DNA of 64,000 nucleotides, from positions 448,001 through 512,000 of the forward strand of contig JBFLYH010000001.1 in assembly GCA_040756875.1 (NCBI GenBank), read 5' to 3'. Of this stretch, positions 3 to 45,160 are shown in pieces. The number at the start of each line of letters is the position of its first letter. Position 1 is the stretch's first letter. Source of the stretch: a candidate division FCPU426 bacterium. Its GTDB lineage: Bacteria; Oederibacteriota; JAAXVQ01; JAUVAV01. The notes below the pieces were generated by a model. That model did no database searches. It saw nothing but the letters and a program-made list of their open reading frames with translations, and had not been told where the DNA came from. A program made the position numbers and the translations under genes.

Positions 3-2213
3 ACTCCCGGCCAGGCGCAGTCCCTGACCACGGTTACGACCGGCAGCTGGTTCATGCGCGCCACACTGACCGCGGTCCAAACACTCAACGGGCAAGCCAT
101 TGTTTATTATCTCTCGGCCAACGGCGGAACGAATTGGGAAGGCCCGGTGACTTTGGGTTCGGCTTGGACGTTTGCGAATACCGGGGTTGACCTGCGCTGG
201 CGCGCGGTTTTGTCCACCTCGGACAGCGCGCTTTCCCCTTTCTTGGATTCCCTGGCCATTGATTATGTAGTGCCCACGCCCACGTCCACCGCTACGCCGA
301 CATTCACAGCCACGCCAACTTATACGGCAACGCCGACCATGACCCGGACTGTCACGCCCACGCCCACGTTTACCGCCACGCCGACTTCCACCGGCACGCC
401 GACCATGACCCGGACCATCACGCCCACAGCCACCCATACTCCCACGGATACCGCCAGCCCGACCATGACCTCGACTTCCACGCCGGAGCAGAGCCCGACC
501 TTCACGGTCACCCGGACTTTTACTTCCACCTCCACCCCGACGTTTACGGCCACGCCAACCTTCACAGCGACCCCGACGTTTACCACCACGCCGACTTTCA
601 CGGCGACCCCGACGTTTACGGCCACCCCGACGTTTACCGCCACGCCGACGGCGACGGCAACGCGGACCTCGACTTCGACTGCCACGGCGACGCGGACGCA
701 CTCGCCGACGTTCACGGCCACTCCGACGTTTACGGATACCCCAACGTTTACCGCCACGCCGACGGCGACGGCAACGCGGACTTCAACTTCGACCGCCACG
801 CCCACGCGGACGCATTCGCCGACGTTCACGGCCACGCCCACCTATACGGATACTCCGACGTTTACGGCCACGCCAACGTTCACGGATACATGGACAGCCA
901 CACCGACCTTCACCGCTACGCCAACTTTCACGGCGACTTCGACTGCCACGTTTACCCGGACGCATTCGCCGACGTTCACCGCCACCCCGACTTTCACGGC
1001 GACGCCGACGTTTACCGCCACGCGGACAGCAACTTCGACGCGGACATCGACCCCGACCGCCACGGCCACGCGGACGCATTCGCCGACGTTTACGGCCACG
1101 CCGACCTTCACGGCCACCGCGACCGCTACGGCCACGCGGACGCACTCGCCGACGTTTACAGCCACGCCGACCTTCACGGCCACTGCGACCGCTACGGCGA
1201 CGCAGACGCATTCGCCGACGTTTACGGCCACGCCGACGTTCACCGCCACCCCGACTTTCACAGTGACGCGGACCTTCACGTCGACTTTCACGGATACGCC
1301 GACGTTTACGGCCACGCCGACGTTCACCCCGACCTTCACCGCGACCCCGACGTTAACGGCTACGCCGACATTTACTGCATCCGCCACTTTCACCCTGACA
1401 TTTACAGCCACGCCGACCTTCACGGCCACGCCGACTTATACTGTGACCCGTACTTCCACGGCCACTGCCACGCATACGCCAACCTTTACAGTGACGCCGA
1501 CTTTCACCGCCTCAATAACAGTCACGCCCACTGGGACACATACGCCGACCTTTACGGCCACGCCGACCTTCACCGCCTCAATCACCGTTACGCCCACGGG
1601 GACAAACACCCCGACCTTCACGATCACTCCTACCCGCACTGCCAGTGCGACCTTTACCGCAACTGCCACTGCCACCCTGACGGCAACAGCCTCAGCTTCT
1701 CCGTCGGCGACTCCCAGCCGGACTGCAAGTCTGACACCTTCCCTTACGACCACGCAGACTCCTACCGCGACTTCCACTATCACCCTGACTTCCAGTCCGA
1801 CGCGGACCGTCACAGCCACGCAAACTCCGCTGGCTTCAGCGACAATAACCCCAACCCTTACCGCCACGCCGACCAATCCGCCGGTTTTGCCTTCCGCCAC
1901 TCCGACCGCGACCTCTACGCCGACCGCGACCTCCACCCCCATGATCGAAATACGGGTTTATCCCAACCCGTTCAAGCCCGACACGGCGGTAGGCGGTACG
2001 CTGAAATTTATCGGATTACAGGCAACGGATGTATTACGGATATATACCGTAACAGCGGAAAAAGTTTATGAGACCAGAGGGCATGCCGGCCGCTTTGAAT
2101 GGAATGGTAAAAACCGGGAAGGTTCGGCGGTTGCCAGCGGTGTTTATATATGGGTTCTGGAAAGGTCAAACGGCGAAAAATATATGGGAAAAATAATCAT
2201 TATTTCCAACTGA
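3..2213 (+). CDS. 5'-truncated secreted Thr/Pro-rich surface protein with C-terminal T9SS-type sorting/FlgD-Ig-like domain
   Basis: The frame is open from base 3 ([18 protein letters not shown]...), so the gene starts left of the window. The N-terminal part ([11 protein letters not shown]...LRWRAVL) resembles the post-propeller domain of the two downstream paralogs. A ~550-aa TPTFTA stalk follows, then the C-terminus [10 protein letters not shown]...[10 protein letters not shown]...SGVYIW...KIIII. Confidence 0.85.
270..1940 (+). repeat. Coding low-complexity tandem repeat, ~18-bp period (TPTFTA / [10 protein letters not shown])
   Basis: Many degenerate copies of acgccgacgtttacggcc in frame, with higher-order units such as [18 protein letters not shown]. 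Confidence 0.85.
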
Positions 2214-2328
2214 TTAAATCTTATTGCAATTTTTTTGGAACCTATTTGTCAATCATTCGCTCCAAAGTATCATGAATATCTTGTAAAGCTCGAGATCAAT
2301 AATGACGATGCTTTTTTCAGATTATGGA

Positions 2329-2357
2329 TTGACTGTTAATTTTTTTTGGCATAAAAT
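2329..2357 (+). promoter_or_regulatory. Putative sigma70 promoter
   Basis: TTGACT (2329-2334), 17-nt spacer, TAAAAT (2352-2357), in an AT-rich intergenic region upstream of the PorV-like gene. Confidence 0.55.
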
Positions 2358-2450
2358 TTTACATGAATAGGTGCTCTAAAACTTAACAAATATATTTTAC
2401 ATATTTTTACAAATGCTATTTTAAAAAAAATTTTAAGAGGGACAGGAACC

Positions 2451-4058
2451 ATGAAAAAAACAATTGTCCTGCTCGGGATTTTTTGTCTTTTTTCATTATC
2501 CGCTGAAGCCGCTGGCCCGGGAACGACCAATGCCAACTTTTTAAAGGCAGGCCAAGGTGCACGGCCGATCAGCATGGGTGAAACCTACATCGCTTTAGGC
2601 GACGGCTTGGACACCTTATATTGGAACCCTGCCGGCTTGGCGCAACTTGCTTCGCCCACCGCCTCCTTCATGCACAGTTTTTGGATTCAAGACATCGGAA
2701 CTGAGTACCTGGCCTATGGGTTGCCGCTCGGTCCGTTGGGTGCGGTGGGTGGTGGTTTGAGTTTCTTGCATGCCGGCTCGGTTACGGAGACTTTTGAAGA
2801 CCAGTATGGGAACTATGCAGGTGAAGGCGGACAAGTGTCGGCCATGAGTTTTGCGTTGATTGGCACATATGCCCAGAAGCTTTCCCGGCTCATGCCTGTG
2901 CAAGACCCGTTTTTCAGCAACATGCTGGTGGGAGCCAGCTTGCGGATCGTTACCGAAAGCATCGAGGAAGCCAGCATCTTCGGCGGAGCGCTTGACATCG
3001 GAGTGATCTGGCGACAGACCGAGGAGATCAAGCCCATGGAGATCACCTCGGCGGCCGGATTGACGCCGCGGGAAACAGGGAAGCCCCTGGTGCGCGACCG
3101 TGGCTGGCGGCTGGGTTTGGTCGGCCAGAACCTGGGCATGACCAGCGACCAGTTGATGCCGATCAATCTGAGGGCTGGCGCCGGCTATGTGTTGCCGGAC
3201 CTGTTTTCCCCCAATGGCCGCGGCACCATGGCCGTGGATGTCCTGGTGCCGATCGACAATGATGTGAAAATATCCGTGGGCGCGGAATACGCCCACTTGA
3301 GCCCCAACACGGAATTTGCCGCGCGGGTCGGTTACAAGATTGGTAATGAAATCAAGGATTTGGATTCCCTGGCGGGCCTTACCGCGGGCGTGGGCGTGGC
3401 GATCCAGGCCGGGTTCATCAAATATCAGGTGGACTACGCTTTCGTTCCATACGGCGAGTTGGGCTCGACCCACCGTGCCTCCCTGACCCTTGGATTTTTA
3501 CCCTCGGCCAATGTGGTGAAAACCCAACCGGTCAGCGTGGTTCCTTCCGGCGTGGATGAAATCGCGCCACCCTTGGCCGCTTCCGCAAAACCGGCGGAAC
3601 CGAAGCCGGTTGTCAAAGCCCAGACCCAACCCAAACCCCAACCCGCTGCGGAAACGGTACCGGTCGTCAAACCCGAAGTGGCGCAACCCGTGGAACCCAC
3701 GGCGCCAGCGCCGGCAGCCGAACCCGGCAAGTTGGCGCAAGCTTTACGAATGTTCCAGAAACGCATGGAAGCCAAACTGATCATCCCCGTGCAATTCGAT
3801 ACCAATAAATCCATTATTCCCGATGGCAGCAAAAAAAGCCTGGATATGCTGGGTAAAATATTGGAGCAAAATCCCCAGGGGCAGGTGGTCATCACTGGTT
3901 ACGCGGGAACGGACGCCAAACTTGCCGAAGCCAGGGCGCAAGCCGTGGCACGTTATCTGAAAATGACTTATTCCGTGGCTTCCGACCGCTTGGAAGTGCG
4001 CAAAGGCGATGCAGCCGCAAAGCCGAAGAATGTTGATATCAGCGTGGAAGCGAAGTAA
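2451..4058 (+). CDS. PorV/PorQ-like (UPF0164) outer-membrane beta-barrel fused via a Pro/Ala/Lys linker to an OmpA-like domain
   Basis: Signal peptide; GARPISMGETYIA...YWNPAGLA motif; barrel end VDYAFVPYGELGSTHRASL; PAEPKP linker; VQFDTNKS...ITGYAG...ARAQAVARYL. SD-like AGAGGGA/AGGA upstream. Confidence 0.8.
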   Translation: MKKTIVLLGIFCLFSLSAEAAGPGTTNANFLKAGQGARPISMGETYIALGDGLDTLYWNPAGLAQLASPTASFMHSFWIQDIGTEYLAYGLPLGPLGAVGGGLSFLHAGSVTETFEDQYGNYAGEGGQVSAMSFALIGTYAQKLSRLMPVQDPFFSNMLVGASLRIVTESIEEASIFGGALDIGVIWRQTEEIKPMEITSAAGLTPRETGKPLVRDRGWRLGLVGQNLGMTSDQLMPINLRAGAGYVLPDLFSPNGRGTMAVDVLVPIDNDVKISVGAEYAHLSPNTEFAARVGYKIGNEIKDLDSLAGLTAGVGVAIQAGFIKYQVDYAFVPYGELGSTHRASLTLGFLPSANVVKTQPVSVVPSGVDEIAPPLAASAKPAEPKPVVKAQTQPKPQPAAETVPVVKPEVAQPVEPTAPAPAAEPGKLAQALRMFQKRMEAKLIIPVQFDTNKSIIPDGSKKSLDMLGKILEQNPQGQVVITGYAGTDAKLAEARAQAVARYLKMTYSVASDRLEVRKGDAAAKPKNVDISVEAK

Positions 4059-4128
4059 AGCTGCTGGGCAAGGAACGGAATACCTGAACCCATTGTAATA
4101 GGCGAGTCGTGCGGTAGGGAGAGATCTC

Positions 4129-7100
4129 ATGCTGATATCCAAACGCACGTTTATCAGGATTTGCTGTTGCGCGGCCGCCGCATTGGCAATCGTCCAACCT
4201 GTCCTTGGCGATACATTCACCGAGAATTTCACCTCCACCACCTATCAGGATGTCCTGCAGACCTCCGCCGTATGGGATACATCGGCCGAGGAAGTCCGGC
4301 TACCTTCCACCTATACGTTTGCCCAGCCTTCCGGCGTGGTGGTTTGGGGCGGACAAGTCAATGCCATCCAACAGAACGGCAGTTATTGGCTGATCGGCGG
4401 CAACGGCGCCAAACTGAACCGGTTCAATGGATCTTCTTTCTCCAGCCTCAGCGATGGAATCCAAGGCTTTTCGGGAAACAACATCTATGCGGTGAATTAT
4501 GGCAGCGGCTATTGGCTGGTTGGCGGCGGAAGCCAGAAACTGAACAAGTACGACGGATCGGTGTTCACAGATTATTCCTCCAGCCTGGTCAATTGGTCCG
4601 GCGCGGATGTGCGGGCCGTGGCTTACGGCGCGGGGACGGAAAATTTCTGGTTGGTCGTAGGCAGCAACGGCAAGCTGAACCGCTACAACGGCACCTCCTT
4701 TGCCGACCTGTCGGGCAGCACAGGCTTCTGGGGCAGCACGACCACGGGTTATGCGGCGGGATTCAACGGCACCTACTGGCTCCTGGGCGGCAGCAACGGC
4801 TACCTGGTGAGGTACCAGAGCGGGACGTTCACGCCCCTCTCGGCCTGGGGCAGCGGCATTGTGTATTCAATCGCGTGGGACAGCGGGAGCTCGCAGTGGC
4901 TAATCGGCGGCTCGGGCGGCCGGCTGCTTTCCTACAACGGGACCAGCTTCACGAACCAATCATCCAAAGTCAGCACGTTCAACAACATCTACAGTATTGC
5001 GCACAACGGCAGCTACTGGCTGCTGGCGGGGAACGACACGACGGGCGCGAGCGAAGTTTATTCGATGTCCAGTGATTTCGCCACCTACTACGACCGATCG
5101 GCGAACCTGGTGAACATGGGCGCGGGTGTGCCGCTGTATGCGGTGGCCGGAGACAGCACGGAATGGCTGCTGGGTGGGGCTGAAGCCAAGCTGAACAACC
5201 ACACGGGAACGATCAGCTCCACGACGTTCGAGGACCGTGCCAGCCAGTTGGTGGAGTTTGGCATCGATGCCATCTACGCTGCGGGCTACAATAGCACGGA
5301 TGGTTATTGGCTTATGGCCGGTGCCAATAAAAATTTGAACCGTTACAGCGGTGGAGTTTTCACAGACGAAAGCAGCGTGCTCTCGGGCTGGGCGTCAAAT
5401 CAGGCGGTGACAGCGGTTGGGTATAATGCCACGGATAATTATTGGCTGATCGGCGGCGCTGACGGCAGGTTGAACCGCTACAACGGAACTTCCTGTACGG
5501 ATCTGACCAGCAGCCTGGGCTTTGGCACCGGCGTGGCGGTGAACGCCATCCGCTGGAACGGCAGCCTATGGCTGATCGGCGGTGACAACGCCCGGCTCAG
5601 CAGCTACAACGGATCGAGCTTTAATTCTTTGACCCTGAATAATTTCAATCCCTTGGGTTCGAATGAATCCGTGCGCGCCATTGAATACACCAACGGCTAT
5701 TGGCTGATCGGCGGCGCCAATGGCTGCATCAACCGTTACAACGGCACGAGCTTTACCGATTTGCGGGCGAATTTGCAGGCGACCTGGGGTGGATATTACA
5801 ACGTCAATTCCATTTCCCAGGACGGGACCTTGTTCTGGCTGGGGGGAGACAGCGGGCATGTGGCCAGCTATTATGCGGTCATCAATTTGTTTACGAATTA
5901 TTCCAGCACGGATCTGGGGACGATTTTCGGCAGCAACAACGTTCTGTCTGTTTACTGGAGCACGGGCTTCAATTGCCTGATGGTGGGAGGCCAGAATGCC
6001 AAACTGGCGTTCCTGTACTTACCCAGCACTGTGGACGATCATTCGGCGGATTTGATCAACTACGGAACCAACAGTATCAACAGCATCAAGTTCGGCGTGG
6101 ATACGTACTTTCTCGTTGGTACAGCCGCGGCAGTGAACACCTATGGCCCGATTTACGAACAGCCCAAGTGGGCCCAGTCGTTGACCGTGGCCGAGTCCAC
6201 GGAAAATTTCTATTCAGTCACGCTGACAGCCACTGACAGCATTCCGGCAGGCACGTCCATCCGCTACTGGCTGACAGTCAACGGCCAGCTGTCGGATCCC
6301 CATGAATACTGGATCCAAGCCACACCCGGCGTGGCCACCATTTTCACGGGGTTGTACGAGGGCATCCGGCTGAAATGGAAAGCGGAGCTGGTAACGAACA
6401 ACCTGACCATATCACCGCGCATTTACCAGATCAATTTGCAATACCAGATCCCGCCCACGCCCACGCCCACCGATACTTCCACGCCCACGCCCACGGTCAC
6501 ACCGACGCCATCGGTCACACCCAGCGCGACCGCCACGCAAACGCCGAGCTTCACGGTCACGCCGACTGCCACGCCCACGTTTACCAGGACGCCGACCGAC
6601 ACTTCGACGCCGACATTTACGATCTCCCCGACTTCCACGGCCACTCCGACGATAACGCCTACGCCGACTGATGTGATCTTCAGCCCTACGATAACGCCCA
6701 CGCCGACCCAAACCCTGACCTCGACATTTACGCCGACTTTCACCCAAACCTATACGATTTCGCCCACGTTTTCCGAAACGCCCACCATGACTTCCACGTT
6801 TTCAGTGACCGCGACGCTGACCATCTCTCCGACCATGACCGAAACGCCGGTGGTGAGTCCGACCTCCACTCCGACGCCGTCAGTGACCCAAACGTGGACC
6901 GCCAGCCCCACGGCCACGCCCAACCCGGAATTTACTTTCTACTACGGTTCGCTTATCATCCCCATGGACACAGCCTCCGGCCGCACCAACCAGGACCGCG
7001 GCATGTGGCGGGCATACGGCTTGGTGTACCGCCTGCTGCAAAACGGCATCCCGGTGCACTGGGCGATCAAGTCCTATAAAGATTATGAAGAAATCGACTT

Positions 7101-9558: not shown

Positions 9559-9668
9559 CAGAATGCCCTCGAGTTTCGGATAGTATAGACGAAACTTAAA
9601 ATATGGGGTATTCTGTATAAATGTGAATCTGTTTGGAAACACGCCCCTGCGGGGCAAAGGCTGGCCGT

Positions 9669-15600: not shown

Positions 15601-16091
15601 CGTTTACCCCCACGCTGACGCCGACCCAGGTTGATTCGCCAACCTCAACATCCACACCCACCATTACGGAAACCAGCACGGCCTCTGCCACCTGGACCGT
15701 CAGTCCGACCATCACCTTGACCGCTACCTGGCAGGCATCAGCCACGCCTACGTCCGTGATTGGTCCCTGGACCCCGACCAGCACGCCCACGCCTACACTT
15801 ACACCCACTGCTTTCGCCGGGCCGGAAGAACCTCTGATTTATCCCAATCCGTTCAATCCAGGGGCAGCCTTTGGCAATGCCCTGAAATTTGATCACTGCC
15901 CGCAGGGAACCAAGATCCGTATATTCACTGTTACCGGCGAATTGGTCAGGAAATTCGAAAGCACAGGCAACAGGGTTCTCTGGGACGGCAAAAATACTCA
16001 ATCCGAGGATGTAGTTAAAGGCATATATATTTACATTATTGATCTGCCGCAGGGAGACAGAAGAGTAGGAAAAATATTCCTGGTTCGCTAA
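9669..16091 (+). CDS. Tandem paralog of 4129..9558 with longer Thr/Pro stalks and T9SS-type CTD
   Basis: Same domain order and long identical peptide stretches. ATG 9669 (MKRFNRII..., signal peptide) is preferred over TTG 9633. C-terminus LIYPNPFNP...LWDGKN...KGIYIY...KIFLVR. Confidence 0.85.
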
Positions 16092-16239
16092 TAATTTCCA
16101 CGAAAATTTCAACCCGGAATAATCGTCTGACAGCCTATTTTTATGGATAAAACGGCTTGTAAATGCTGATATTTTAATGATTGCCGGTTAAGTGCAATGA
16201 ATACACACCGAAAATAAATGAATGAATCCTAGTTTGCGA

Positions 16240-16267
16240 TTGACATATAAGGCTAATCCTTTATAAT
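16240..16267 (+). promoter_or_regulatory. Consensus sigma70 promoter
   Basis: Exact TTGACA (16240-16245), 16-nt spacer, exact TATAAT (16262-16267), upstream of the 16.3-23.4 kb genes. Confidence 0.7.
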
Positions 16268-16327
16268 GATAGATTGTTAATTCCACATTGAAGCAGAATG
16301 TCAAATAATTTGAAAGGAATGAGACCT

Positions 16328-22117: not shown

Positions 22118-22153
22118 GCGAAACCCTATATCGAGAAAGCAGGTGACTCGAGC

Positions 22154-23404
22154 ATGACTAAATTGATCAGCCGGATAATGATGGGCTTGGCGCTGTGCGG
22201 ATTTTTGGCCGGGTGGGTTCAAGCCGGCACCGGAGACCACGGATTGCCGGGAGAATATCTCACCTACGATATTGGCGCCAGGGCGGCAGGCATGGGCGGT
22301 GCCATGACCGGGCTGGCCGACGACGTCAGCGCCATTTTTTACAACCCAGCCGGGCTGGCTACTCAGAATCCCATCCAGTTCGGACTTCAACACGTCATTC
22401 TCTTCGAGGATACGATGTTTGATTTCCTCGGGTTCTCGATGCCCATCGTGGAGATCGGGACCGTCGGCCTCGGCGTGGTCATGCTGAATTCCGGCGGGTT
22501 TGACACCCGTGACGACCGTTATCGCCCCAATCCCACGGGTTTTACGAATTCCATGAGTCAAATGGGCGTCTGCCTGAGCTATGCCCGGGATTTAATGCCT
22601 AGTCTGACTGTGGGCGGCAACATTAAAATTGCCTATGAAGATATGTTTGGCCATACTGGCACAGGTGTGGGTTTGGATTTGGGCGGGCTTTACAGCGTTA
22701 TACCTGAATTGCAAGTAGGTTTGTACCTCAACAACATCCTGACTCCGACAGTTTTGGGCGATACTTATCCCGGCAGCGTCACTTTGGGTTTGGGCAGTCA
22801 TTTATTCAATGACGATCTCCTTCTGGATGCGGATATCAGCAAAACCTTAGCCAATCAGGGAATAAAATGGGAAGTGGGCGGCCAGCTGGACGTCTATGAG
22901 GATATGGTGTTCGTCCGGAGCGGATTGGACGATGAAATGAAGGTTCACCTGGGAGCAGGCGGAAAATATATGAATATCACCCTGGATTATGCGATGAGCC
23001 TCGAAGCACTGGGGCTGGCGCACAAGATTTCACTGGGTTATTCCATGGGTGGTTTCGAAATGACACTCAAGGCTTCGCCGAAGATATTCTCACCGGTTGG
23101 CATCAAGAAGGTCACGACCTTCGCCATCCGGGCGGTGTCCAAGTATCCGATCCGTGAATGGGAAATGAACATCAAGGATCAAAACGGCGACATCGTCCGG
23201 TCGTATTCCGGCGAAGACAATCCGCCGAACCAAATCGTTTGGAACGGCAAAGATGACCGCGGCCTGCCCGCGCCGGACGGCAATTTCAGCGCGCAATTGG
23301 TGATTACCGATTCGAATGGAAAGGTGATCAAGTCGAATTTTGAATCGGTGAGAATTCAGAGCGCGGTGCCGCTGGGCGGTGAAGGCGGTTTGGAACTAGA
23401 GTAG
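22154..23404 (+). CDS. PorV/PorQ-like outer-membrane barrel with C-terminal FlgD-Ig-like domain
   Basis: Signal peptide; GARAAGMGGA...IFYNPAGLA; barrel end LDYAMSLEALGLAHKISLGY; then IFSP...WEMNIKDQNGDIVRSYSG...IVWNGKDDRG...PDGNF. Confidence 0.8.
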   Translation: MTKLISRIMMGLALCGFLAGWVQAGTGDHGLPGEYLTYDIGARAAGMGGAMTGLADDVSAIFYNPAGLATQNPIQFGLQHVILFEDTMFDFLGFSMPIVEIGTVGLGVVMLNSGGFDTRDDRYRPNPTGFTNSMSQMGVCLSYARDLMPSLTVGGNIKIAYEDMFGHTGTGVGLDLGGLYSVIPELQVGLYLNNILTPTVLGDTYPGSVTLGLGSHLFNDDLLLDADISKTLANQGIKWEVGGQLDVYEDMVFVRSGLDDEMKVHLGAGGKYMNITLDYAMSLEALGLAHKISLGYSMGGFEMTLKASPKIFSPVGIKKVTTFAIRAVSKYPIREWEMNIKDQNGDIVRSYSGEDNPPNQIVWNGKDDRGLPAPDGNFSAQLVITDSNGKVIKSNFESVRIQSAVPLGGEGGLELE

Positions 23405-23603
23405 GCCGCCGGCTCCTTCGGATATTTGCCCTGCAGCAGCGAAACGTATGGAATTTGACCGCAGGCTGCTGGTTTGGCCGGCCGGGGTTGAAGTCCGTAT
23501 GGGGTCTCTCCCACCGACTTGGCCGAAAAATCAAGCTGAATGATAGAATCGGCAGTTGGCTGGCCGGGGGCTTCATCATTCTACTTTAAAAGGGGAACGC
23601 CTT

Positions 23604-26600
23604 ATGCACAGTCGGATGCGTGTGGGCATCATGGCCGCAGGACTTGTCTGCTTCGTTCTGATTCTGACCGCGGGAGTAAGAGCGGAGGATCCTGAAAAAG
23701 TAAAACTGGCCAAGGAAGCCTGGGATCAAGCCTTTGATTCGACCGCGCTGGATATCGAAGACACCAATCTTTCCCAGACGTGGGCGAATTACGCCAAGCA
23801 GTTTGCCGACCAGCCCAGCGCGCCCCGTGCGGCTTATATGGTGGCTGAAGTTCAATTTCAGCAGCGCTTTTACGACAAGGCAGCTTCGGCGTACCAGGAA
23901 TTTCTTAAGAAATACCCACGGGAAACCTTTTCTGATTCGGCCGCGTATCGCTATGCGGAATGCGCATACAATCTGAAGGATTACAAGGAAGCGCTGGTGC
24001 GATGGGATCAGTTGTTGGATAAATATCCCGCTACTTTTCTGCGCGCCGAAGCTTTGTACGGTCAAATCCTCTGCCACATCGTACGCCGTAAATGGCGCGA
24101 TGCGTCGGAAACCATCGAACGCCTGACCAGTCGCTATCCTTATTACCGAAAAGTGCAGAAAATCAAACTGCCGTTGGGATTGGTTTATTTCCAGAACCAT
24201 CAATATGCCCAGGCTATGCAGTATTTCATGAGCCTGGAAGGCGATATGGCGACTTACTACATCGGGCGTTGCCAGGAAAACCTCGGACAGTTTCTGCCGG
24301 CGGCAGCCAATTATAAAAAGATCATCGAGCAATTTCCAAATTCGATTTATCTTCTGGATGCCGCCTACAGCAAGGCGGACGCCTATTACAAAGGACAGAA
24401 TTACACGGTGGCGGTCAGGGAGTTTCAGGATTTTTTAAAAAAATATCCTGATTCGAAGTTCCGCCCCTATGCGCTCTATAAAATGGCGGTCAGTCAGATG
24501 CGCCAGGAAAATTACGCTGATGCGCTTAAGAATTTGGAAAGCTTGCTGGCCCAGGCCGAACGGTCGCAGCTGGCGGCTAATGCGCTCTATCTGAAAGGGG
24601 AGTGCCTGTCGAAACTCTCCAAGCCCGAACAGGCGGTTGCCACCTATAATCAGGTTTTCACAGAATATCCCAACACCTATGTTTCGGGAAGCGCCAAGTT
24701 TAAGGCCGGTTGGGTGATGCTGCGGAGCGGGGAATCCGCGCAAGCCATGCGGACGTTCAAGGAATTTTTAACCACCTACCCAATCCACGAGAACGTGCAA
24801 TTAGCCACCTATTTGCTCGGGAACAGTTATTTCAAGCAGGAACTGTATGCGCAGGCCATCCCGATCTATCAAGATATTTTAATGAAATACAAGTATTCGG
24901 ACGTCTCTGACGCGGCCTTGGCGGCGCTGCAGATGGCTTATTATATTCCGAAGCAATATGAGCAGTTGATCTCCACCACGCATTACATCCTCAAAGTCCT
25001 GTCCGCCAATTTCCCGCCGTCCAAGAGCACGTGGCGCTCGCTGTCGTATTTTTATTTGGGCGAAGCTTATTACCATATGGATATGTTTCCCCAGGCTGCG
25101 GGACAATATAAAAAGATCGTCGAAAATTTTTCCGATTCCCCGATTTTAAATTGGGCCAAGCTTGGACTGGCCTACAGCTTGTTTGAAACCGGCGAATTCA
25201 AGGATTCCCGGCGGGCCGCCCAGGATCTGGCGTCGGCTTCCGATGTCCCGGAAAAACTGCGGAACTATGCTTCGCTGATGGTGGCGCACAACCTCTTCAA
25301 TGAAAAGAAATATGAGGATGCGATCGTAAAGTATGAAACCTTTGCCAAGACCAATCCGACGATGCCTGAAGCCGGGGATGCGTATTTCTATGCGGGGCAG
25401 GCGTATTACCAATTGGAATATTATGCCAATGCCATCGAAGCTTGGCAGCGGGTCGTGAAAAATTTTCCGAAAAGTGAAAAAGCGCCGGAAGCAGCCTACC
25501 GCATGGCGGATACCTTTTTCAAAGCGCAGCGCTATGACGAAGCCGTCAGGGGCTTCGAATTGCTTTCCCAGTGGCCGGAAGAAAGCAACCCGTACCGCAA
25601 GGAAATGCAGTTGCGCATCGCCCAGTGCTACTACAACGCGAAGATGGACGATAAAGCCGTGCAAGCGTATACCAAATTCATCAATGAATATCCGGATGAT
25701 CCCAAAGTCAAGGACGCCATGGAGGGAATTCAGCTCAGTTATTACCGCAAAGGCGCCACGGCGGACGCGGTCCCGCAACTTATGGAATTCGTATCCAAGT
25801 TCCCGAACAGCCGCTTGGCGGTGGACGCGTTGTATCGCGTAGGGGAGATTTATTACCAGGAAAAGAAGATGGATCAGACCATTGCGGCCTTCCAACAGCT
25901 GATTGCTGATTATCCGGAAAGCTCTTTATTGCCCAATGCCCAATATTATATCGCCATATGCAATGAAGAACTCGGCAACCGCGATCAGGCCATCCGGAGT
26001 TACGTGGCTTTTATCCGCAATTTCCCCTCGCACGAATTGGTGGTGGATGTCCGCTTCCGTCTGGGTTCGGCATATTTCGCCAAAGAGGATTTTGAGACGG
26101 CTATACAGATTTTCCAGACCATTTTGGATTTGCATCCCAAATCCGATTATGCAGCCAATGCCTTGTATAATATTGCCTTATGCTACAAACGCCTGAAGAA
26201 ATGGCAGTCTGCGATTGAACGGTATACCGAATTTTATCAACGGTTTCCTCAGGACCCCAAAGCCAAAGATTGTTTGATGCAGATTGCTACGACCTACCGC
26301 GAAGAGAAACGCTATCCCTCCGCCATTAAAATATATGAAGAGATGATAGCGAAGCCCGAATTTGCGCAAGAAAAGCCGGAAATTATGTACACGATCGCGG
26401 ATGCTTATATGGAAATGGAAAATAAAGAAGAAGCCGCCAAGGCTTTTGACCGCATGCGCGCCTTGAAACCCAAAGACGATGTTTACCGCTTGACGGCATT
26501 GGCAAAACTGGGTAGTCTGTATGAAGAATTAAACCAATGGGGTAAAGCATACGTCGTTTACGAAGATCTTTCCACTTCCGGCGGCAAGCCCGAATGGACA

Positions 26601-26735
26601 CAAGCCGCAAAAAGCCGCATGTCGATCATCAAATTGGAACATCAAGCGGAAGTGGATGCTGAATTAGGAAGCGCCAAGAGTCCGGCGGCGCAGGGCTCGG
26701 AGAAAAAACCGGAGCCCAAGAAAAAGGCGAAGTAA
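23604..26735 (+). CDS. Large periplasmic tetratricopeptide-repeat protein (CpoB/BamD-like YP.S repeats)
   Basis: Signal peptide; AGGGGA SD before ATG 23604; many TPR pairs of the form A.Y..G..Y.......A...F..II..YP.S. Confidence 0.85.
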   Translation: MHSRMRVGIMAAGLVCFVLILTAGVRAEDPEKVKLAKEAWDQAFDSTALDIEDTNLSQTWANYAKQFADQPSAPRAAYMVAEVQFQQRFYDKAASAYQEFLKKYPRETFSDSAAYRYAECAYNLKDYKEALVRWDQLLDKYPATFLRAEALYGQILCHIVRRKWRDASETIERLTSRYPYYRKVQKIKLPLGLVYFQNHQYAQAMQYFMSLEGDMATYYIGRCQENLGQFLPAAANYKKIIEQFPNSIYLLDAAYSKADAYYKGQNYTVAVREFQDFLKKYPDSKFRPYALYKMAVSQMRQENYADALKNLESLLAQAERSQLAANALYLKGECLSKLSKPEQAVATYNQVFTEYPNTYVSGSAKFKAGWVMLRSGESAQAMRTFKEFLTTYPIHENVQLATYLLGNSYFKQELYAQAIPIYQDILMKYKYSDVSDAALAALQMAYYIPKQYEQLISTTHYILKVLSANFPPSKSTWRSLSYFYLGEAYYHMDMFPQAAGQYKKIVENFSDSPILNWAKLGLAYSLFETGEFKDSRRAAQDLASASDVPEKLRNYASLMVAHNLFNEKKYEDAIVKYETFAKTNPTMPEAGDAYFYAGQAYYQLEYYANAIEAWQRVVKNFPKSEKAPEAAYRMADTFFKAQRYDEAVRGFELLSQWPEESNPYRKEMQLRIAQCYYNAKMDDKAVQAYTKFINEYPDDPKVKDAMEGIQLSYYRKGATADAVPQLMEFVSKFPNSRLAVDALYRVGEIYYQEKKMDQTIAAFQQLIADYPESSLLPNAQYYIAICNEELGNRDQAIRSYVAFIRNFPSHELVVDVRFRLGSAYFAKEDFETAIQIFQTILDLHPKSDYAANALYNIALCYKRLKKWQSAIERYTEFYQRFPQDPKAKDCLMQIATTYREEKRYPSAIKIYEEMIAKPEFAQEKPEIMYTIADAYMEMENKEEAAKAFDRMRALKPKDDVYRLTALAKLGSLYEELNQWGKAYVVYEDLSTSGGKPEWTQAAKSRMSIIKLEHQAEVDAELGSAKSPAAQGSEKKPEPKKKAK

Positions 26736-26777
26736 TATCCCGCCTATCCAAGGCCGGGAGGAAAAAGGGAGGGAAAT

Positions 26778-27428
26778 ATGGAGCTCGGAAATCTGGATTT
26801 TGTTGAAATCTTTCGCAGCAGCTTTACTTTAATGATCTTATTGGTGTGCTCGATTTTGGCTGTGGCCTTTATGATCGAACGCTTCCTTTTTTACCGCCGG
26901 GCCAAAGTGGATTCGACGCGCTTTTTGTCGCGGATAAAGATGTCGATGGAGAACGAAAACTATCAGGAGGCCATAGCGGCCTGTGAACGCGACCGCAGCC
27001 CTGTGGCCGCAGTCTTGCGCGTAGGCCTCTTGAATCGCGAGCTTCCCTATGAACAGCTGGACGAATTGATGGCCGCCACTCGCGAAGAAGAACGCGTGAA
27101 GTTGGAACGCTATTTGGGCGTTTTAGGAACATTGGGCAATTCGTCGCCCTTCATCGGACTGTTTGGAACGGTCGTGGGGATCATCAAAGCGTTTCATGAC
27201 TTGGCAGCGTCCGGTTCGGGCGGTCCCACGGTGGTGGCCGCCGGTATTGCCGAAGCACTGGTTGCCACTGCGGCCGGATTGGCAGTCGCCATTCCCTGCG
27301 TCATGGTGTTCAATTATTTCATGCGTAAAGTCAAGAACATGTCCGTGGAGATGGAAGCGGTCTCCAAACGTTTTCTCGTTATATTAACCGGAAAAGAAGC
27401 CGAGAGCACGTCCTCGCGCAGGCGATAG
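26778..27428 (+). CDS. MotA/TolQ/ExbB proton-channel family protein
   Basis: LGTLGNSSPFIGLFGTVVGII...GIAEALVATAAGLAVAIP motif; three TM segments. Confidence 0.92.
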   Translation: MELGNLDFVEIFRSSFTLMILLVCSILAVAFMIERFLFYRRAKVDSTRFLSRIKMSMENENYQEAIAACERDRSPVAAVLRVGLLNRELPYEQLDELMAATREEERVKLERYLGVLGTLGNSSPFIGLFGTVVGIIKAFHDLAASGSGGPTVVAAGIAEALVATAAGLAVAIPCVMVFNYFMRKVKNMSVEMEAVSKRFLVILTGKEAESTSSRRR

Positions 27429-27468
27429 CCGGAGCAGCGGAACCATTACGGCAACGGGGGTTTGAACC

Positions 27469-27915
27469 ATGGGAATGGCAGCAGGCGCAGAAGATGCCAT
27501 CACCGACATCAATGTAACACCATTGGTTGACGTATGTCTGGTTTTGGTGATTATTTTCATGGTTACCGCCCCCTTGGCCATGCAGGCGGGCATCATCGTG
27601 GCAAGCAGCAAAGTGGATGCGGCTGAAGGCCAGGTATCGCAAAACGAATCCGTGGCCGTACGCTTGACGGCGGATAAAATGTATTTAAACGACCGCCTGG
27701 TCACTTTGGAAACCCTGCCGCCGCTGATAACCGCCAAGCTGAAAGTTAATAAGAAGAAAGTGGTGACAATTACCGCCGACGAAGATGTCAAACACGGCAT
27801 TATTGTGGCGGTGTTGGACATTTCCAAGCAAAGCGGTGCGGAAGGATTGTCCATCATGCGCAAGCCGGTGATGGGGCAGTTAGATAGTAAAAAGAAAAAA
27901 AGTAGGAAACGTTAG
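27469..27915 (+). CDS. ExbD/TolR family protein (copy 1)
   Basis: INVTPLVDVCLVLVIIFMVTAP TM segment with the conserved Asp; ITADEDVKHG periplasmic motif. Confidence 0.92.
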   Translation: MGMAAGAEDAITDINVTPLVDVCLVLVIIFMVTAPLAMQAGIIVASSKVDAAEGQVSQNESVAVRLTADKMYLNDRLVTLETLPPLITAKLKVNKKKVVTITADEDVKHGIIVAVLDISKQSGAEGLSIMRKPVMGQLDSKKKKSRKR

Positions 27916-27927
27916 GAGGGATTGGCA

Positions 27928-28335
27928 ATGGGTGGCGGCGCTGGTGCATCTGACGAACCCATCACAGCGATCAATGTCACGCCGTTGGTGGATGTTTGTC
28001 TTGTCTTGGTGATTATTTTTATGGTTACGGCTCCTCTGTTTAGCCAGCCGGTCATGAAAGTGGAATTGCCTAAAGCGGTTACGGATGAAGGCGAATCCAC
28101 CGAAAACATCACCATTACCATAGATCCGGACGAACGGATAGCCGTGAATTCGAAGGAAGTCACCTTCGACGAACTGAAGCCGGAATTGAAGATGAAACTT
28201 CAGGAAAGTGCCGAAAAATACGTCATTATTCGCGCGGACAATCTGACCAATCACGGCATTGTATTGAAAGCCCTGGATTTGGCGAAGGAACTGGGCGCGA
28301 AAAAAATGGTATTCGCGACCGAACATAAAAAATAA
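27928..28335 (+). CDS. ExbD/TolR family protein (copy 2)
   Basis: INVTPLVDVCLVLVIIFMVTAP, VELPKA and IRAD motifs; AGGAGG SD. Confidence 0.92.
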   Translation: MGGGAGASDEPITAINVTPLVDVCLVLVIIFMVTAPLFSQPVMKVELPKAVTDEGESTENITITIDPDERIAVNSKEVTFDELKPELKMKLQESAEKYVIIRADNLTNHGIVLKALDLAKELGAKKMVFATEHKK

Positions 28336-28359
28336 CGTTTGCCGACAGAGGCACCGGGT

Positions 28360-29397
28360 ATGAGCAGAATCAGAGTCATTATAGATGAAGAGGAACGGTT
28401 TGCCGCGGATTATGACATTCCCGGTTTGACCAAGGGCAGTTTTGCATCGCTGCTTATGCATGCTTCAATATTTTTCCTGGTTTTTATGGTGTCACATCAA
28501 CAGAAAAAAGCTGAAGTTTTGCTTACCGAAATCACGCTTGTGGATCAAATTATACCGATTCCCGAGGAAGAGGCGCCTCCGCCCATGCCGGTGGCCCCGC
28601 CGGAACAAAAAAATGTCTGGGATTTTCTGAAGCAAGCTATTCCGTTGAAAGCCAAACCCGAGGAACTGGCTTCCCAGCTGCCAATCGACCTGCCCAAGAA
28701 AGAGGCTGCGCCGGCCATGGCACAAATGCCGGATGCGCTGAAATTGGGCAGTAAAAAAGATCTCGATAAGCCTGCGATCGGCGATAAACCGCTGGATTTG
28801 GTGGGGCGTAAAGCCGTCGAAGCTCCTGCGGGCATGAATGTCAATCCTCTGCAAATGAACCAGCGCCGCGATTCGCTTGCCAGCGCGGCGAATTTACCAA
28901 CAGGCGTCAGTTTGGGAAAAAAGAGCAGCTTTTTGCCCGGGCAGCAGATGCCCGTTGTGGATACGCAGCAATTCGCGCGCCGTGCCAATTTGCAGGCCCG
29001 GGGCGGGTCGCTGGCGGACATGCCCGCTTTGCAAAAGCCGGCGGAAAAGAAGAAAATGGAGTTTGACACTTCGCAGTTGAATATTTCCAGGGATCAGAAC
29101 ACCTTCAAGATTTTCGGCCCTTTGAAGGACCGGCAGATTCTGGAAAAATATCTGCCTCGTTATCCCCGCTGGGCCGAGGAGCAGGGCCTGGAAGGGTCGG
29201 TTAGCCTGCACTTTTTCGTATTTCCCAACGGCATGGTTAAAAATAACATTTTTGTCGAACAGAGTTCTGGTTATTCCGAAATGGACGGTTTGGCCATGAA
29301 AGCCCTGCAGGCGTTCAAATTCGCTCCACTGCCCGCTAGCGAGCGGCAGGAAGAACAAGAAGGTGTTATCGTATTCTATTTCAGGTTGTCGAGGTGA
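28360..29397 (+). CDS. TonB family energy transducer
   Basis: TM anchor SLLMH (SxxxH), Pro-rich linker, C-terminal PRYPRWAEEQGLEGSV.L.F.V...G.V....V..SSG...D..A. Start is ATG 28360 or TTG 28339. Confidence 0.88.
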   Translation: MSRIRVIIDEEERFAADYDIPGLTKGSFASLLMHASIFFLVFMVSHQQKKAEVLLTEITLVDQIIPIPEEEAPPPMPVAPPEQKNVWDFLKQAIPLKAKPEELASQLPIDLPKKEAAPAMAQMPDALKLGSKKDLDKPAIGDKPLDLVGRKAVEAPAGMNVNPLQMNQRRDSLASAANLPTGVSLGKKSSFLPGQQMPVVDTQQFARRANLQARGGSLADMPALQKPAEKKKMEFDTSQLNISRDQNTFKIFGPLKDRQILEKYLPRYPRWAEEQGLEGSVSLHFFVFPNGMVKNNIFVEQSSGYSEMDGLAMKALQAFKFAPLPASERQEEQEGVIVFYFRLSR

Positions 29398-29404
29398 ACT
29401 GATT

Positions 29405-30343
29405 ATGATCAGGCGCGTCACCCTCAGTATCATCGCTTTTTTTTGCCTGGCCGTGTATCCCGCTTTTCAGCTTTTAGCCGCGGAGGATCAGAAATCGGAT
29501 CAATTGGCCGGCGCCCCGGAAAAGAAAACTGAAGAGAAAACCGACAGCAGCCAGGAAGTGGTCATTAAAGGCGTTCAGCGCCTGAAAGTAAAAGTCGTAA
29601 AGCCCGAACCGGATATTTCCTTTGACGTGGACGAGATTGCGGTACCCTATGTAGTGACTGAAGACAGCGTGCTGGATATTTCACCCACCTCCATGACGGA
29701 CCCGCAAATTTCGGTGCCGTCAACCTTGAACAGCGCACAGGCGGCTTCGCCTTTTATACAGCTGTTCAAACGGCCGCCGATTTTAACACTCAACCCCCGA
29801 TACAACAGTCAAGTCAACATCAGCAAATGGTCGCTGCGGATAACCGACGGATTCGGCAATGTGTTCAAGAATTTTACGGGCGAAGGCTCCCTCCCCAAAC
29901 AGATCATTTGGGACGGGACGGACAAAAATAAGCAAATGCTTGATATTGGCACTTCGTATTCCTATATTTTTTCCATTGTCGACGTCGCCTCCAACCCCAC
30001 GAGCCAGATGGGCAAACCGGTGATTTTGGAATCCCTTTTGTACGAGGAAAACGGCGAATTGATCGCGCAGGTTACAAGCGAGGTTATGTTTGAAAAAGGC
30101 GAGCGCAAGACCACGATCAGCCAGAAAGGCCAGCTGTATTTGCGGGAAGTGGCGGATCTGATTACTTCGCGGCAAAATTTCCCAGTGCAATTGGAAGCGT
30201 ACGCCAAGGATCTTGACGATGCCAGTGCCAAGGGGGAAATCATCCAGGATTACCTGGTTGAGCGTTTGACGATACCCAAGGAAAATATTAAACTGACTCC
30301 GCGCAAATCGCGGATCGCGAAAATACTTTTTAAGATTAAGTAA
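29405..30343 (+). CDS. Exported protein with FlgD-Ig-like module and degenerate OmpA-like C-terminal domain
   Basis: Signal peptide after GAGGTG SD; KWSLRITDGFG...PKQIIWDGTD; VMFEKG...LREVADLI...LEAYA...IIQDYL. Confidence 0.6.
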   Translation: MIRRVTLSIIAFFCLAVYPAFQLLAAEDQKSDQLAGAPEKKTEEKTDSSQEVVIKGVQRLKVKVVKPEPDISFDVDEIAVPYVVTEDSVLDISPTSMTDPQISVPSTLNSAQAASPFIQLFKRPPILTLNPRYNSQVNISKWSLRITDGFGNVFKNFTGEGSLPKQIIWDGTDKNKQMLDIGTSYSYIFSIVDVASNPTSQMGKPVILESLLYEENGELIAQVTSEVMFEKGERKTTISQKGQLYLREVADLITSRQNFPVQLEAYAKDLDDASAKGEIIQDYLVERLTIPKENIKLTPRKSRIAKILFKIK

Positions 30344-30349
30344 AAATCT

Positions 30350-30480: not shown

Positions 30481-30502
30481 TGTCGTTATTGGACATCGTT
30501 TT

Positions 30503-43958: not shown

Positions 43959-43978
43959 ATACCGAAAGGAAATCCGCC

Positions 43979-45127: not shown

Positions 45128-45160
45128 ACCCTTGCCGCGGATAGAAAAGGAGCGTTGCTT

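Follow-up and report, generated by a model that had tools for sequence, protein, structure and literature searches.

According to excerpts of the published account, carrier release in the Bacteroidota type IX secretion system (T9SS) requires energy (PMC10994853), and excerpts of another report place T9SS genes only within the FCB group, stating that they are absent outside it (PMC11285876). Gene clusters that join a gene for a TPR protein, one tolQ-like and two tolR-like genes and a vWA transducer are described in a third source, as is the S-x3-H motif (PMC12204202). The DNA analyzed here is from an uncultured groundwater bacterium, and "the window" denotes the whole 64-kb stretch. A first-pass annotation had described a 30-kb block in this window that encodes four giant proteins with a C-terminal domain (CTD), two PorV-like barrels, and TPR, ExbB, two ExbD, TonB and FlgD/OmpA-like proteins. 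We found every one of these genes, all co-oriented on the + strand, and they are listed below with a promoter-like and a terminator-like element.

3 to 2213, + strand: 3' part of cargo0 (5' part cut), a CTD protein whose full-length gene encodes 1422 aa; accessory, paired with the next barrel
2451 to 4058, + strand: barrel of the PorV/PorQ family with a fused peptidoglycan-binding (OmpA) domain (NF033709, 131.9 bits; OmpA, 34.9 bits)
4129 to 9558, + strand: cargo1, a 1809-aa Thr/Ser-rich CTD protein, kept only within the order
9633 to 16091, + strand: cargo2, a 2152-aa Thr-rich CTD protein, paralogue of cargo1
16240 to 16267, + strand: candidate sigma-70-like promoter (TTGACA, 16-nt spacer, TATAAT) by consensus match only (12/12), 30 bp 5' of cargo3
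16298 to 22117, + strand: cargo3, a 1939-aa exported protein with tandem Ig-like (Big_1-like) repeats and a T9SS-type C-terminal domain at its end
22154 to 23404, + strand: PorVFlgD, a 14-strand barrel of the PorV/PorQ family that ends in an Ig (FlgD_ig) domain (NF033709, 101 bits; FlgD_ig, 35.6 bits)
23556 to 26735, + strand: TPR protein, 1059 aa, with an N-terminal signal or anchor (TPR_6, 315 bits); probable start ATG near 23604
26778 to 27428, + strand: ExbB/TolQ-type proton channel subunit (PF01618, 113.5 bits)
27469 to 27915, + strand: ExbD1/TolR-type subunit, transmembrane Asp kept (PF02472, 78.8 bits)
27922 to 28335, + strand: ExbD2/TolR-type subunit, distinct from ExbD1, transmembrane Asp kept (PF02472, 104.7 bits)
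28339 to 29397, + strand: TonB-like force transducer with a transmembrane helix, Pro-rich linker and TonB_C (PF03544 (TonB_C), 46.0 bits)
29363 to 30343, + strand: p326, with a signal peptide, disordered N-terminal region, Ig (FlgD-like) domain and OmpA/MotB-like domain; probable start ATG 29405
30503 to 30531, + strand: putative intrinsic-terminator-like hairpin separating p326 from ribD (13-bp stem with 7 GC pairs, and a T run)

Eight genes, in the order cargo3-PorV+Ig-TPR-ExbB-ExbD-ExbD-TonB-p326 (16240-30531), make up a core unit that is smaller than the 30-kb block. Gaps of 4-43 bp separate 6/7 of the operon gene pairs, with ~150 bp ahead of the TPR gene, and the hairpin at 30503 is the strongest + strand terminator site within 15900-30800. 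The best explanation for the genes at 16298-30343, judged from the sequence, would be a single operon. Conservation of cargo0, cargo1, cargo2 and the PorV+OmpA barrel is confined to the organism's own order; the core is cargo3-to-p326 (16.2-30.5 kb) and not the whole 30 kb.

The eight genes have stayed together through inheritance. From a sample of 37 loci in 36 genomes, 4 loci cut by contig ends were left out, and the unit is syntenic in 31 of the 33 evaluable loci (12/12 in the own order, 19/21 in other families) across 13/23 families of a candidate phylum, in which relatives' records carry the labels Firestonebacteria/Goldiibacteriota; because the genomes are related and not independent, these counts and the co-occurrence counts given below overstate the support. 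ORF picking was crude, and short ExbB/ExbD genes were missed in some loci. The linkage holds at ~30-50% protein identity (~30% for syntenic cargo3 orthologues, 30-36% for TPR orthologues in distant families), with changed flanks (the neighbor is ribD in the own order and PFK/RNase J-like/ABC genes in other families) and after rearrangement, since loci of families f4/f11 and a metagenome locus (L080) have altered gene order and kept adjacency. Among metagenome sequences, there are four orthologue-grade PorVFlgD genes whose contigs extend downstream, and behind all four comes the TPR gene and then, where the contig suffices, motor genes; for the other PorV-like genes, the count with ExbB/ExbD/TonB/p326 up to six genes away is 0/72. 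Set against this figure, the 31/33 conserved loci argue that the linkage is not due to chance. The proposal in the first-pass annotation that a Ton/Tol-type motor is linked to a PorV-type barrel and CTD cargo is thus borne out as a conserved unit, with TPR-exbB-exbD-exbD-tonB staying beside PorV-like and CTD genes in relatives.

The operon occurs in 43/99 genomes. At thresholds of our choosing (1e-30 and 1e-100), PorVFlgD and p326 are both present in 39 of these 99 genomes and both missing from 56; p326 occurs by itself in 4 and PorVFlgD by itself in 0. As exceptions, a 98%-complete genome (G023) has TPR-ExbB-TonB-p326 and no PorVFlgD orthologue at E<=1e-60, and another genome (G016) has operon parts split over two contigs.

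By family, the parts are ExbB, ExbD (in two distinct copies), TonB, PorV/PorQ and T9SS-CTD proteins. Both window barrels exceed the cut-off of the NCBIfam PorV/PorQ family model NF033709 (131.9 and 101 versus 90 bits) and fall below that of the PorV equivalog NF033710 (42.4 versus 250). The predicted model of PorVFlgD (pLDDT 82.9) has the 14 strands of a FadL-like barrel plus the Ig domain, which is probably periplasmic. It most resembles PorV of the F. johnsoniae translocon, and its closest PDB matches are PorV chains 8gl6_F and 6h3i_F. Every complete cargo (cargo1, cargo2 and cargo3) has a signal peptide, and a YPNPF... domain stands at the C-terminal end in 4/4 cargos. CHU_C scores are weak overall: cargo2 passes the cut-off of 27 bits (30.0), whereas cargo0 (22.3), cargo1 (21.1) and cargo3 (17.0) do not. 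Cargo2 also matches TIGR04183 at C1:463837-464058 (22.3 bits), and the tail of cargo3 matches FlgD_ig (21.5 bits). The cargo3 repeat consensus was built across 18 orthologues, and its atlas leads point to Big_1/invasin clusters with scores <0.9.

In the predicted model of p326, 90 disordered N-terminal residues precede an FlgD-like Ig domain plus an OmpA/MotB-like fold. A Pfam search of p326 gave no match, OmpA included, and what we take to be the conserved Arg of the OmpA motif is missing from the p326 alignment, which makes peptidoglycan binding uncertain. No lipobox was found in this protein. An EVV[VI]KG-type TonB-box-like motif occurs in 32/34 p326 orthologues versus 17/5625 background ORFs, and also lies N-terminally in the TonB-dependent-receptor-like barrel of a second, paralogous TPR-barrel-ExbB-ExbD-TonB cluster in the same genome; by this resemblance, it is a candidate TonB box. 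The p326 profile matches 13 genome ORFs, namely p326, 11 PorV-like ORFs, where it falls in the C-terminal extensions, and one giant protein; four of the PorV-like matches extend over the Ig part as well as the OmpA-like part. Domain fusion ties p326-like modules to PorV barrels.

Profiles for all three Ton-system components tested (ExbB, ExbD and the TonB C-terminal domain; Pfam) found matches. The ExbB is one of 4 MotA/ExbB paralogues in the genome, and the TPR protein has 22 further TPR-type matches besides TPR_6. The operon TonB retains the S-x3-H motor-binding helix, with S37-x3-H41...S52 in its transmembrane segment and H41 nearly invariant among 31 orthologues. A Plug/TBDT profile search gave zero matches in C1:448001-512000, the entire window, in agreement with the earlier statement that it holds no TonB-dependent receptor.

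From these sequences and structure models, we favor, at a probability of roughly 55%, the reading that the operon is a PMF-driven trans-envelope module dedicated to just one giant protein of the cell surface, cargo3. It is best read as a Ton-like force transducer that acts on a single PorV-type carrier and on the giant cargo of Ig repeats that belongs to it. Cargo3 would pass the outer membrane via a shared SprA-type pathway and be received by PorVFlgD as its own PorV-type carrier, as in the other cargo-to-PorV pairs of the genome. An ExbB/ExbD1/ExbD2 stator would energize the TonB-like protein, whose C-terminal domain may grip the TonB-box-like strand at the p326 N-terminus. The Ig+OmpA-like body of p326 would in turn dock onto the periplasmic Ig "handle" of PorVFlgD, a proposal linked to the other PorV barrels of the genome that have such a body covalently fused, and the large TPR protein would serve as a scaffold. 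Pulling could then release, position or tension the carrier-cargo complex, a step served by GldLM energy in Bacteroidota.

The same motor genes could instead belong to a Tol-Pal-like envelope system, in which TPR (CpoB-like), TolQ-like, two TolR-like, TolA-like and OmpA-like proteins tether or remodel the outer membrane and peptidoglycan, PorVFlgD and p326 replace TolB/Pal, and cargo3 is merely a co-transcribed abundant surface protein. The NCBIfam equivalog scores for ExbB and both ExbD proteins are higher with TolQ/TolR than with ExbB/ExbD models (TolQ TIGR02796, 140.7, versus ExbB, 93.7; TolR, 69.5 and 88.4 for ExbD1 and ExbD2), and canonical TolB was not found in the genome, where the best hit (136.4 bits versus 343) has PD40 repeats only and is not near the operon. 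Because of these two results, such a role suits the motor half equally well. The OmpA/MotB-like fold of p326 fits too, as does the TPR gene adjoining the motor, comparable to cpoB in Tol-Pal loci, and PorE (TPR + propeller + Ig + OmpA) is proposed as a Tol-Pal-like tether (both in excerpts of PMC12204202). However, all equivalog scores are under their cut-offs (TolQ, 221; TolR, 127.3; ExbB, 206), p326 lacks the lipobox, and presence in 43/99 genomes and 13/23 families is odd for a core envelope function. Moreover, one specific cargo and one specific barrel are inherited along with the operon, and the genome has the paralogous TPR-barrel-ExbB-ExbD-TonB cluster, positional equivalents of which occur in operon-less families. 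We consider this alternative unlikely as an account of the whole operon.

SprA, which had been reported missing, is indeed not found inside the 64-kb window, but the genome encodes it as a 2111-aa ORF at C1:863.6-870.0 kb (TIGR04189, 224.2 bits versus a cut-off of 200), and 92/99 genomes of the phylum have it. The PorU sortase model NF033707 finds at best a 1188-aa ORF (84.3 bits versus 420). In searches that had no positive control, TIGR03513 and TIGR03517 (GldL/GldM) and TIGR03525 and TIGR03523 (GldK/GldN) gave no match in this genome, and GldM_1st (PF12081) was found in 0/99 phylum genomes, which agrees with the absence of PorKLMN noted earlier. The 3.2-Mb genome has 68 TIGR04183 matches, ~99 CTD ORFs and 44 PorV-like ORFs, 28 of which lie directly downstream of a CTD gene. 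Because so many proteins need some energy source, this operon and its paralogue might power all PorV-cargo release from SprA in a GldLM-less type-9-like pathway. In family f3 (L071, L073), a PorV-like gene lies directly upstream of the paralogous-cluster TPR gene, and one locus (L067 of G018) reads CTD x3, PorV, ExbB-like, ExbD. Nevertheless, SprA is present in 51/54 genomes of ten families without the operon, the 72 other metagenome PorV-like genes have no motor neighbors, the SprA neighborhood of this genome holds no motor gene, and a divergent GldLM could have escaped the Gld searches. This broader role is thus quite improbable, and the idea of a general T9SS analogue is not supported, on the same 51/54 count. 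Since only 43/99 genomes carry the operon, it is not a general energizer; and given SprA in the operon-less families, it would serve one cargo/carrier pair and not the ~99 CTD proteins. In the favored reading, the module is an accessory paralogue of the second TPR-barrel-ExbB-ExbD-TonB cluster and not a general secretion motor.

An ordinary TonB uptake system that sits beside cargo genes by descent, with no functional coupling, is very improbable: the genome has 7 Plug-domain receptors and PorV-like genes frequent enough for chance adjacency, but the operon has no TBDT, a distinct ExbB-ExbD-ExbD-(TonB)-TBDT cluster lies at C1:225-229 kb, the linkage outlasts rearrangements, new flanking genes and divergence to ~30% identity, PorVFlgD comes and goes with p326, and p326-like modules are fused to PorV barrels.

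The first-pass observation is confirmed and its interpretation as a whole is partly supported. A conserved motor, carrier barrel and giant surface protein hint at an undescribed way to power surface protein display.

Like the Bacteroidota T9SS, this system includes cargo tagged with a CTD, a homologue of SprA, a carrier barrel of the PorV fold, a 5:2-superfamily PMF motor in an operon with an outer-membrane barrel, and an OmpA-like/TPR accessory in the periplasm that can be compared with PorE and SprE; the energy-requiring carrier-release step, described there in excerpts of PMC10994853, is proposed here. It differs in having an ExbB/ExbD/TonB motor and not GldL/GldM, a carrier with a presumably periplasmic Ig domain, a tendency toward one PorV paralogue per cargo (28/44), a host lineage outside the FCB group and, in own-genome searches that had no positive control, no detected GldK/N ring. 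The Ton system shares the ExbB, ExbD and TonB_C families, the S-x3-H helix, the Pro-rich linker and a TonB-box-like strand on the presumed target. Unlike that system, the operon has no Plug/22-strand receptor; what it presumably acts on is a soluble protein of the Ig+OmpA-like kind together with a PorV barrel of 14 strands, and its link is to a giant secreted protein and not to uptake. With Tol-Pal, the operon has in common the TolQ/TolR-like motor, the TolA/TonB-like transducer, the OmpA-like partner and an adjoining TPR gene; the differences are that TolB and a Pal lipoprotein are missing here, that there are two genes of the TolR-like type, that the TPR protein has 1059 aa, and that distribution in the phylum is patchy. 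In the TPR-tolQ-like-two tolR-like-vWA clusters, the transducer carries vWA where ours has TonB_C, and only our locus includes the PorV barrel, CTD cargo and p326. Finally, the Agl-Glt gliding machinery of Myxococcus (excerpts of PMC3169522 and PMC11761067) resembles our system in architecture only: both combine one TolQ-like with two TolR-like subunits and have TPR proteins, TonB-like proteins in the periplasm, barrels in the outer membrane and an adhesin at the surface. Cytoplasmic AglZ/MglA-type parts were not seen, our barrel is of the PorV type, and our adhesin bears a T9SS CTD.

Twelve genes in one orientation span the first 30 kb of the window, which belongs to a genome (G000) of 3.22 Mb in 7 contigs with a completeness of 100%; a DNA run from a groundwater metagenome may be its source. 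Profile searches confirmed the genes and domains that the first-pass annotation had listed for this block, as well as its observation that SprA, PorKLMN, and Plug-type receptors are not encoded within the window. The features of the block are as follows.

Window start (+): cargo0, a large exported protein with its 5' end cut by the window start (full length 1422 aa)
2451-4058 (+): PorV+OmpA barrel, PorV/PorQ family (NF033709, 131.9 bits, cut-off 90) with a fused OmpA domain
First 30 kb (+): cargo1, a large exported protein of 1809 aa
First 30 kb (+): cargo2, a large exported protein of 2152 aa
16240-30531 (+): core unit of eight genes, beginning with cargo3, a large exported protein of 1939 aa
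16240-16267 (+): perfect TTGACA-16-TATAAT, 30 bp 5' of cargo3 (consensus match only)
22154-23404 (+): PorVFlgD, PorV/PorQ family (NF033709, 101 bits, cut-off 90) with a fused FlgD-type Ig domain
Downstream of PorVFlgD (+): in order, a TPR protein of 1059 aa, ExbB, two different ExbD proteins, and TonB with a TonB_C domain
29363-30343 (+): p326, the last core-unit gene (326 aa)
30503-30531 (+): strongest terminator-like hairpin of this strand between 15900 and 30800, 3' of p326 (consensus match only)

All four cargo proteins terminate in a YPNPF... domain that matches type IX C-terminal domain (CTD) models weakly (CHU_C at 17-30 bits; also FlgD_ig and TIGR04183), and p326 has no Pfam match at all. 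Intergenic gaps in the core unit are 4-43 bp, with the exception of ~150 bp ahead of the TPR gene, and ribD, ribBA, and further housekeeping genes lie 3' of the block. At G000:C1:442118-445110, 3 kb 5' of the window, a CTD gene (575 aa) is followed by a PorV+FlgD_ig gene (422 aa) that is the nearest PorVFlgD paralogue (417 bits on profile A3), and thus the cargo/PorV gene array begins before the window. A gene pair between uvrC and valS (window 43952-47092) encodes a 391-aa protein, probably a further one of the CTD type, and then a 645-aa TPR protein; the former matches FlgD_ig at its C-terminus (31.7 bits).

Conservation of cargo0, cargo1, cargo2, and the PorV+OmpA barrel is limited to the taxonomic order of this genome, and we therefore rejected the entire 30-kb block as a single system. 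The gene order of the core unit (cargo3, PorVFlgD, TPR, ExbB, ExbD, ExbD, TonB, p326) recurs across the neighborhoods fetched around window-type ExbB or p326 orthologues (37 loci in 36 other genomes). Contig ends interrupt 4 of the 37 loci, and 31 of the remaining 33 carry PorVFlgD within the cluster (two of the 31 are truncated at contig ends and were detected by BLAST only). Linkage of the motor cluster to PorV/CTD genes in relatives, the check that the first-pass annotation had proposed, is thus conserved. The two loci lacking a clustered PorVFlgD, in G023 and on contig 46 of G016, both belong to family f4. The lowest orthologue identities are ~30% for cargo3, TonB, and p326, 33-36% for the TPR protein, 40-45% for PorVFlgD, and ~50% for ExbB, and the flanking genes vary (ribD in this genome's taxonomic order; PFK, an RNase J-like gene, or an ABC ATPase elsewhere). 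The order is cargo, PorVFlgD, ExbD, ExbD, TonB, p326 in families f4 and f11, and TonB, p326, cargo, PorVFlgD, TPR, ExbB in metagenome locus L080; the genes are reshuffled yet kept together. Simple ORF picking sometimes favored opposite-strand ORFs over short ExbB and ExbD genes, and gaps in the locus table are not absences; the ExbB of G001, for example, is present. At L041 (G078:C9:129000-148800), the orthologues of cargo3, PorVFlgD, TPR, and ExbB are shortened or split (1671, 284, 642, and 151 aa), which may reflect frameshifts, decay, or assembly errors.

Metagenome contigs were also searched from the PorV side with the PorVFlgD alignment, yielding 80 loci. Five PorVFlgD genes among them are orthologue grade (identity of at least 35%); the TPR gene follows in all four that have downstream sequence, and in two the full motor set comes next. 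At L079, a C-terminal fragment of PorVFlgD likewise precedes a TPR gene. Chance adjacency of motor and PorV genes was rejected because none of the 72 other PorV-like metagenome genes, 56 of which have at least one downstream gene, has ExbB, ExbD, TonB, or p326 within six genes.

In the predicted structure of PorVFlgD (pLDDT 82.9), a short helical segment at the N-terminus leads into 14 strands, and an Ig domain forms the C-terminus. Its closest PDB matches are PorV chains from the translocon of F. johnsoniae (8gl6_F, E 2.8e-9; 6h3i_F), then FadL. Because the modeled barrel has 14 strands, the Ig domain should be periplasmic. In the p326 model (pLDDT 78), the signal peptide is followed by ~90 disordered residues, and the folded remainder consists of a FlgD-like Ig domain and an OmpA/MotB-like domain. 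Its most conserved short motif, of the type EVV[VI]KG, lies inside the disordered part and is found in 32 of 34 p326 orthologues versus 17 of 5625 ORFs in this genome. We read this motif as the putative TonB box of the lineage, since it also occurs at the N-terminus of a barrel resembling TonB-dependent receptors (cluster 2, below). The p326 profile matches only 13 ORFs in the genome: p326 itself, the C-terminal extensions of 11 PorV-like ORFs (in 4 of which both the Ig and OmpA-like parts are covered), and one 7689-aa giant. Such fusions argue that the body of p326 acts while attached to PorV barrels. The giant ORF (G000:C1:1007254-1030323, minus strand) combines numerous Ig-like repeats, recognized by the p326 Ig profile, with PorU/CTD-like segments, and a partial PorV-like ORF (C1:1006273-1007241) lies just downstream.

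The membrane Asp, which is essential in ExbD, is retained in both ExbD proteins. The TonB helix retains S37-x3-H41...S52, with H41 nearly invariant, corresponding to the S-x3-H motif of the TonB-type helix described in PMC12204202. The repeats of cargo3 (PGQT..PG...TAG..F.V.V.A.D.YGN) are typical of bacterial Ig-like domains; there is a single match among PDB sequences (E 0.005), and Atlas matches are below 0.9, so the repeat family name serves as a lead only. Joint complex prediction for the TonB C-domain, PorVFlgD, and p326 with our own alignments scored 0.25/0.20 against a mark of 0.32 and was counted neither for nor against an interaction.

The genome encodes four MotA/ExbB paralogues, as follows.

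C1:225-229 kb: classical ExbB-ExbD-ExbD-(TonB)-TBDT cluster
G000:C1:649493-656287 (L004:4493-11287), outside the window: cluster 2, with a TPR protein of 1020 aa, a 584-aa barrel, ExbB, ExbD, and a TonB-like protein of 232 aa
Elsewhere in the genome: flagellar MotAB
Core unit: the window's own cluster, the fourth paralogue

The cluster-2 barrel has no Pfam Plug match, and its Atlas model aligns with TonB-dependent receptor clusters (TM 0.72-0.80). It carries EVVVKG at its N-terminus (DVVITG in other families). As a single query it has orthologues in 15 of 99 genomes, all of this genome's taxonomic order. Among the fetched loci, families f9, f6, and f3 show positional equivalents of cluster 2, and those of f3 (L071, L073) have a PorV-like gene ahead of the TPR gene. 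At L067 (G018:C1:2695500-2715499), three CTD genes and then a PorV-like gene stand immediately before an ExbB-like gene, which is divergent (27% identity); an ExbD-like gene and an ORF of 882 aa come next. This is a PorV-motor adjacency of a different kind from the core unit.

This genome carries type IX-like equipment. There are 68 matches to TIGR04183, and a profile built from these finds 99 ORFs that terminate in a CTD; 44 ORFs belong to the PorV family, and a PorU-like peptidase matches weakly (84 bits, cut-off 420). The first-pass annotation had proposed a system without PorKLMN and SprA. This description fits the window, but SprA is encoded elsewhere in the genome (2111 aa, 224.2 bits against a curated cut-off of 200) and is found in 92 of the 99 genomes of the phylum. 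GldL, GldM, GldK, and GldN models gave no match in the genome, and GldM_1st gave none in the 99 phylum genomes, findings that are weaker than proven absence because the models had no positive control.

A CTD gene immediately precedes 28 of the 44 PorV-like ORFs, and most of these pairs overlap by 4 bp (for example, C1:631353-634179, C1:734336-737583, and C3:226577-231222), and 27 of the 44 have a C-terminal extension of at least 90 aa (Ig, OmpA-like). Likewise, 46 of 65 metagenome PorV-like genes with an upstream neighbor come after a CTD gene. This genome-wide gene grammar of one cargo, one PorV suggests cargo-specific PorV carriers.

The introduction of PMC11285876 describes T9SS genes as confined to the FCB group. 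Goldiibacteriota are classed by NCBI within "Bacteria candidate phyla," and Firestonebacteria adjoin Goldbacteria and Elusimicrobia (PMC7031533), a placement that puts the lineage outside the FCB group and thereby extends the SprA/PorV/CTD machinery beyond it. The Firestonebacteria label itself is uncertain, because FlgE, MotA, MotB, FliL, and FliM genes are present at G000:C2:960600-966200 (locus L005), whereas a figure legend in PMC7031533 gives Firestonebacteria as lacking flagellar genes.

From the observed composition, co-inheritance, and fold families of the core unit, we infer the following mechanism. Cargo3 would be exported by the shared SprA pathway using its own PorV-type carrier. 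The ExbB/ExbD1/ExbD2 stator would drive TonB, which would grip the putative TonB box of p326, while p326 would dock onto the Ig handle that PorVFlgD presents to the periplasm, scaffolded by the TPR protein. The pull of TonB might then release, position, or tension the carrier-cargo complex; in Bacteroidota, the release step needs GldLM energy (abstract of PMC10994853). The same force chain could equally move an adhesin, and release and movement are not distinguished by these data.

How the core unit is distributed bears on two other explanations. With thresholds set after the scores were seen, 43 of the 99 genomes have a p326 orthologue (E<=1e-30); a PorVFlgD-grade match (E<=1e-100) is present in 39 genomes, never without p326. 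The reverse, p326 without PorVFlgD, holds for four genomes (G023, completeness 98%; G039, G082, and G086, 61-88%), and 56 have neither. The core unit is carried by 13 of 23 families, and SprA is present in 51 of the 54 genomes of the other ten. These genomes are kin and not independent, so the counts are descriptive. Patchy distribution, co-inheritance specifically with one cargo, and the existence of a paralogous cluster speak against a Tol-Pal-like envelope tether, which nevertheless fits the motor half: the motor subunits match TolQ/TolR best, no canonical TolB was found in the genome, and the core unit includes a TPR gene and a partner that resembles OmpA. A general replacement for GldLM is contradicted for the core unit by the SprA-positive families that lack it, but may hold for the wider motor family, since family f3 and G018 have PorV-like genes beside other TPR/ExbB clusters. 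Given these families and its tie to one cargo/carrier pair, the core unit is best read as an accessory module bound to that pair and not as the general secretion motor of the phylum.

A broader reading, to which we assign a probability of roughly one in four, is that Ton-family motors in this non-FCB phylum took over the energy-requiring step of type 9-like secretion. TonB would pull, via the TonB-box-bearing Ig/OmpA adaptor, on periplasmic PorV handles and so draw carrier-cargo complexes out of the translocon. This reading draws on the presence of SprA, ~100 CTD proteins, and ~40 cargo-specific PorV carriers where GldKLMN were not found. If true, it would mean that type IX-like export or surface display has a second power train of independent evolutionary origin. 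Even for Bacteroidota, it is not settled how the energy of the motor is passed to the type IX translocon and carrier. TonB with its TonB box is a much better understood force transducer, here in one operon with a PorV-type carrier that bears an extra periplasmic domain, and the arrangement thus offers a simple, testable hypothesis for force coupling.

We found no account of this operon in the main texts of literature on T9SS with PorV/ExbB/TonB and on T9SS beyond Bacteroidetes, Firestonebacteria, Elusimicrobia, Ignavibacteria, and candidate phyla included, although supplements may hold gene tables. All of its parts come from known families, and what appears new is that a Ton-type motor and an Ig/OmpA adaptor with a putative TonB box are combined with a CTD giant and a PorV-type carrier that has a periplasmic domain. 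The core unit differs from the canonical T9SS in the motor and ring features (GldLM, GldKN), which searches of its genome did not find, from canonical Ton uptake systems in having no Plug receptor, and from Tol-Pal in having no TolB or Pal. It shares its gene grammar with the TPR-TolQ-2xTolR-vWA clusters described in PMC12204202 and joins the trans-envelope systems with 5:2 motors and unknown function, a group that is still growing. In its working, the core unit would most resemble a cross between Ton force transduction and T9SS carrier handling.
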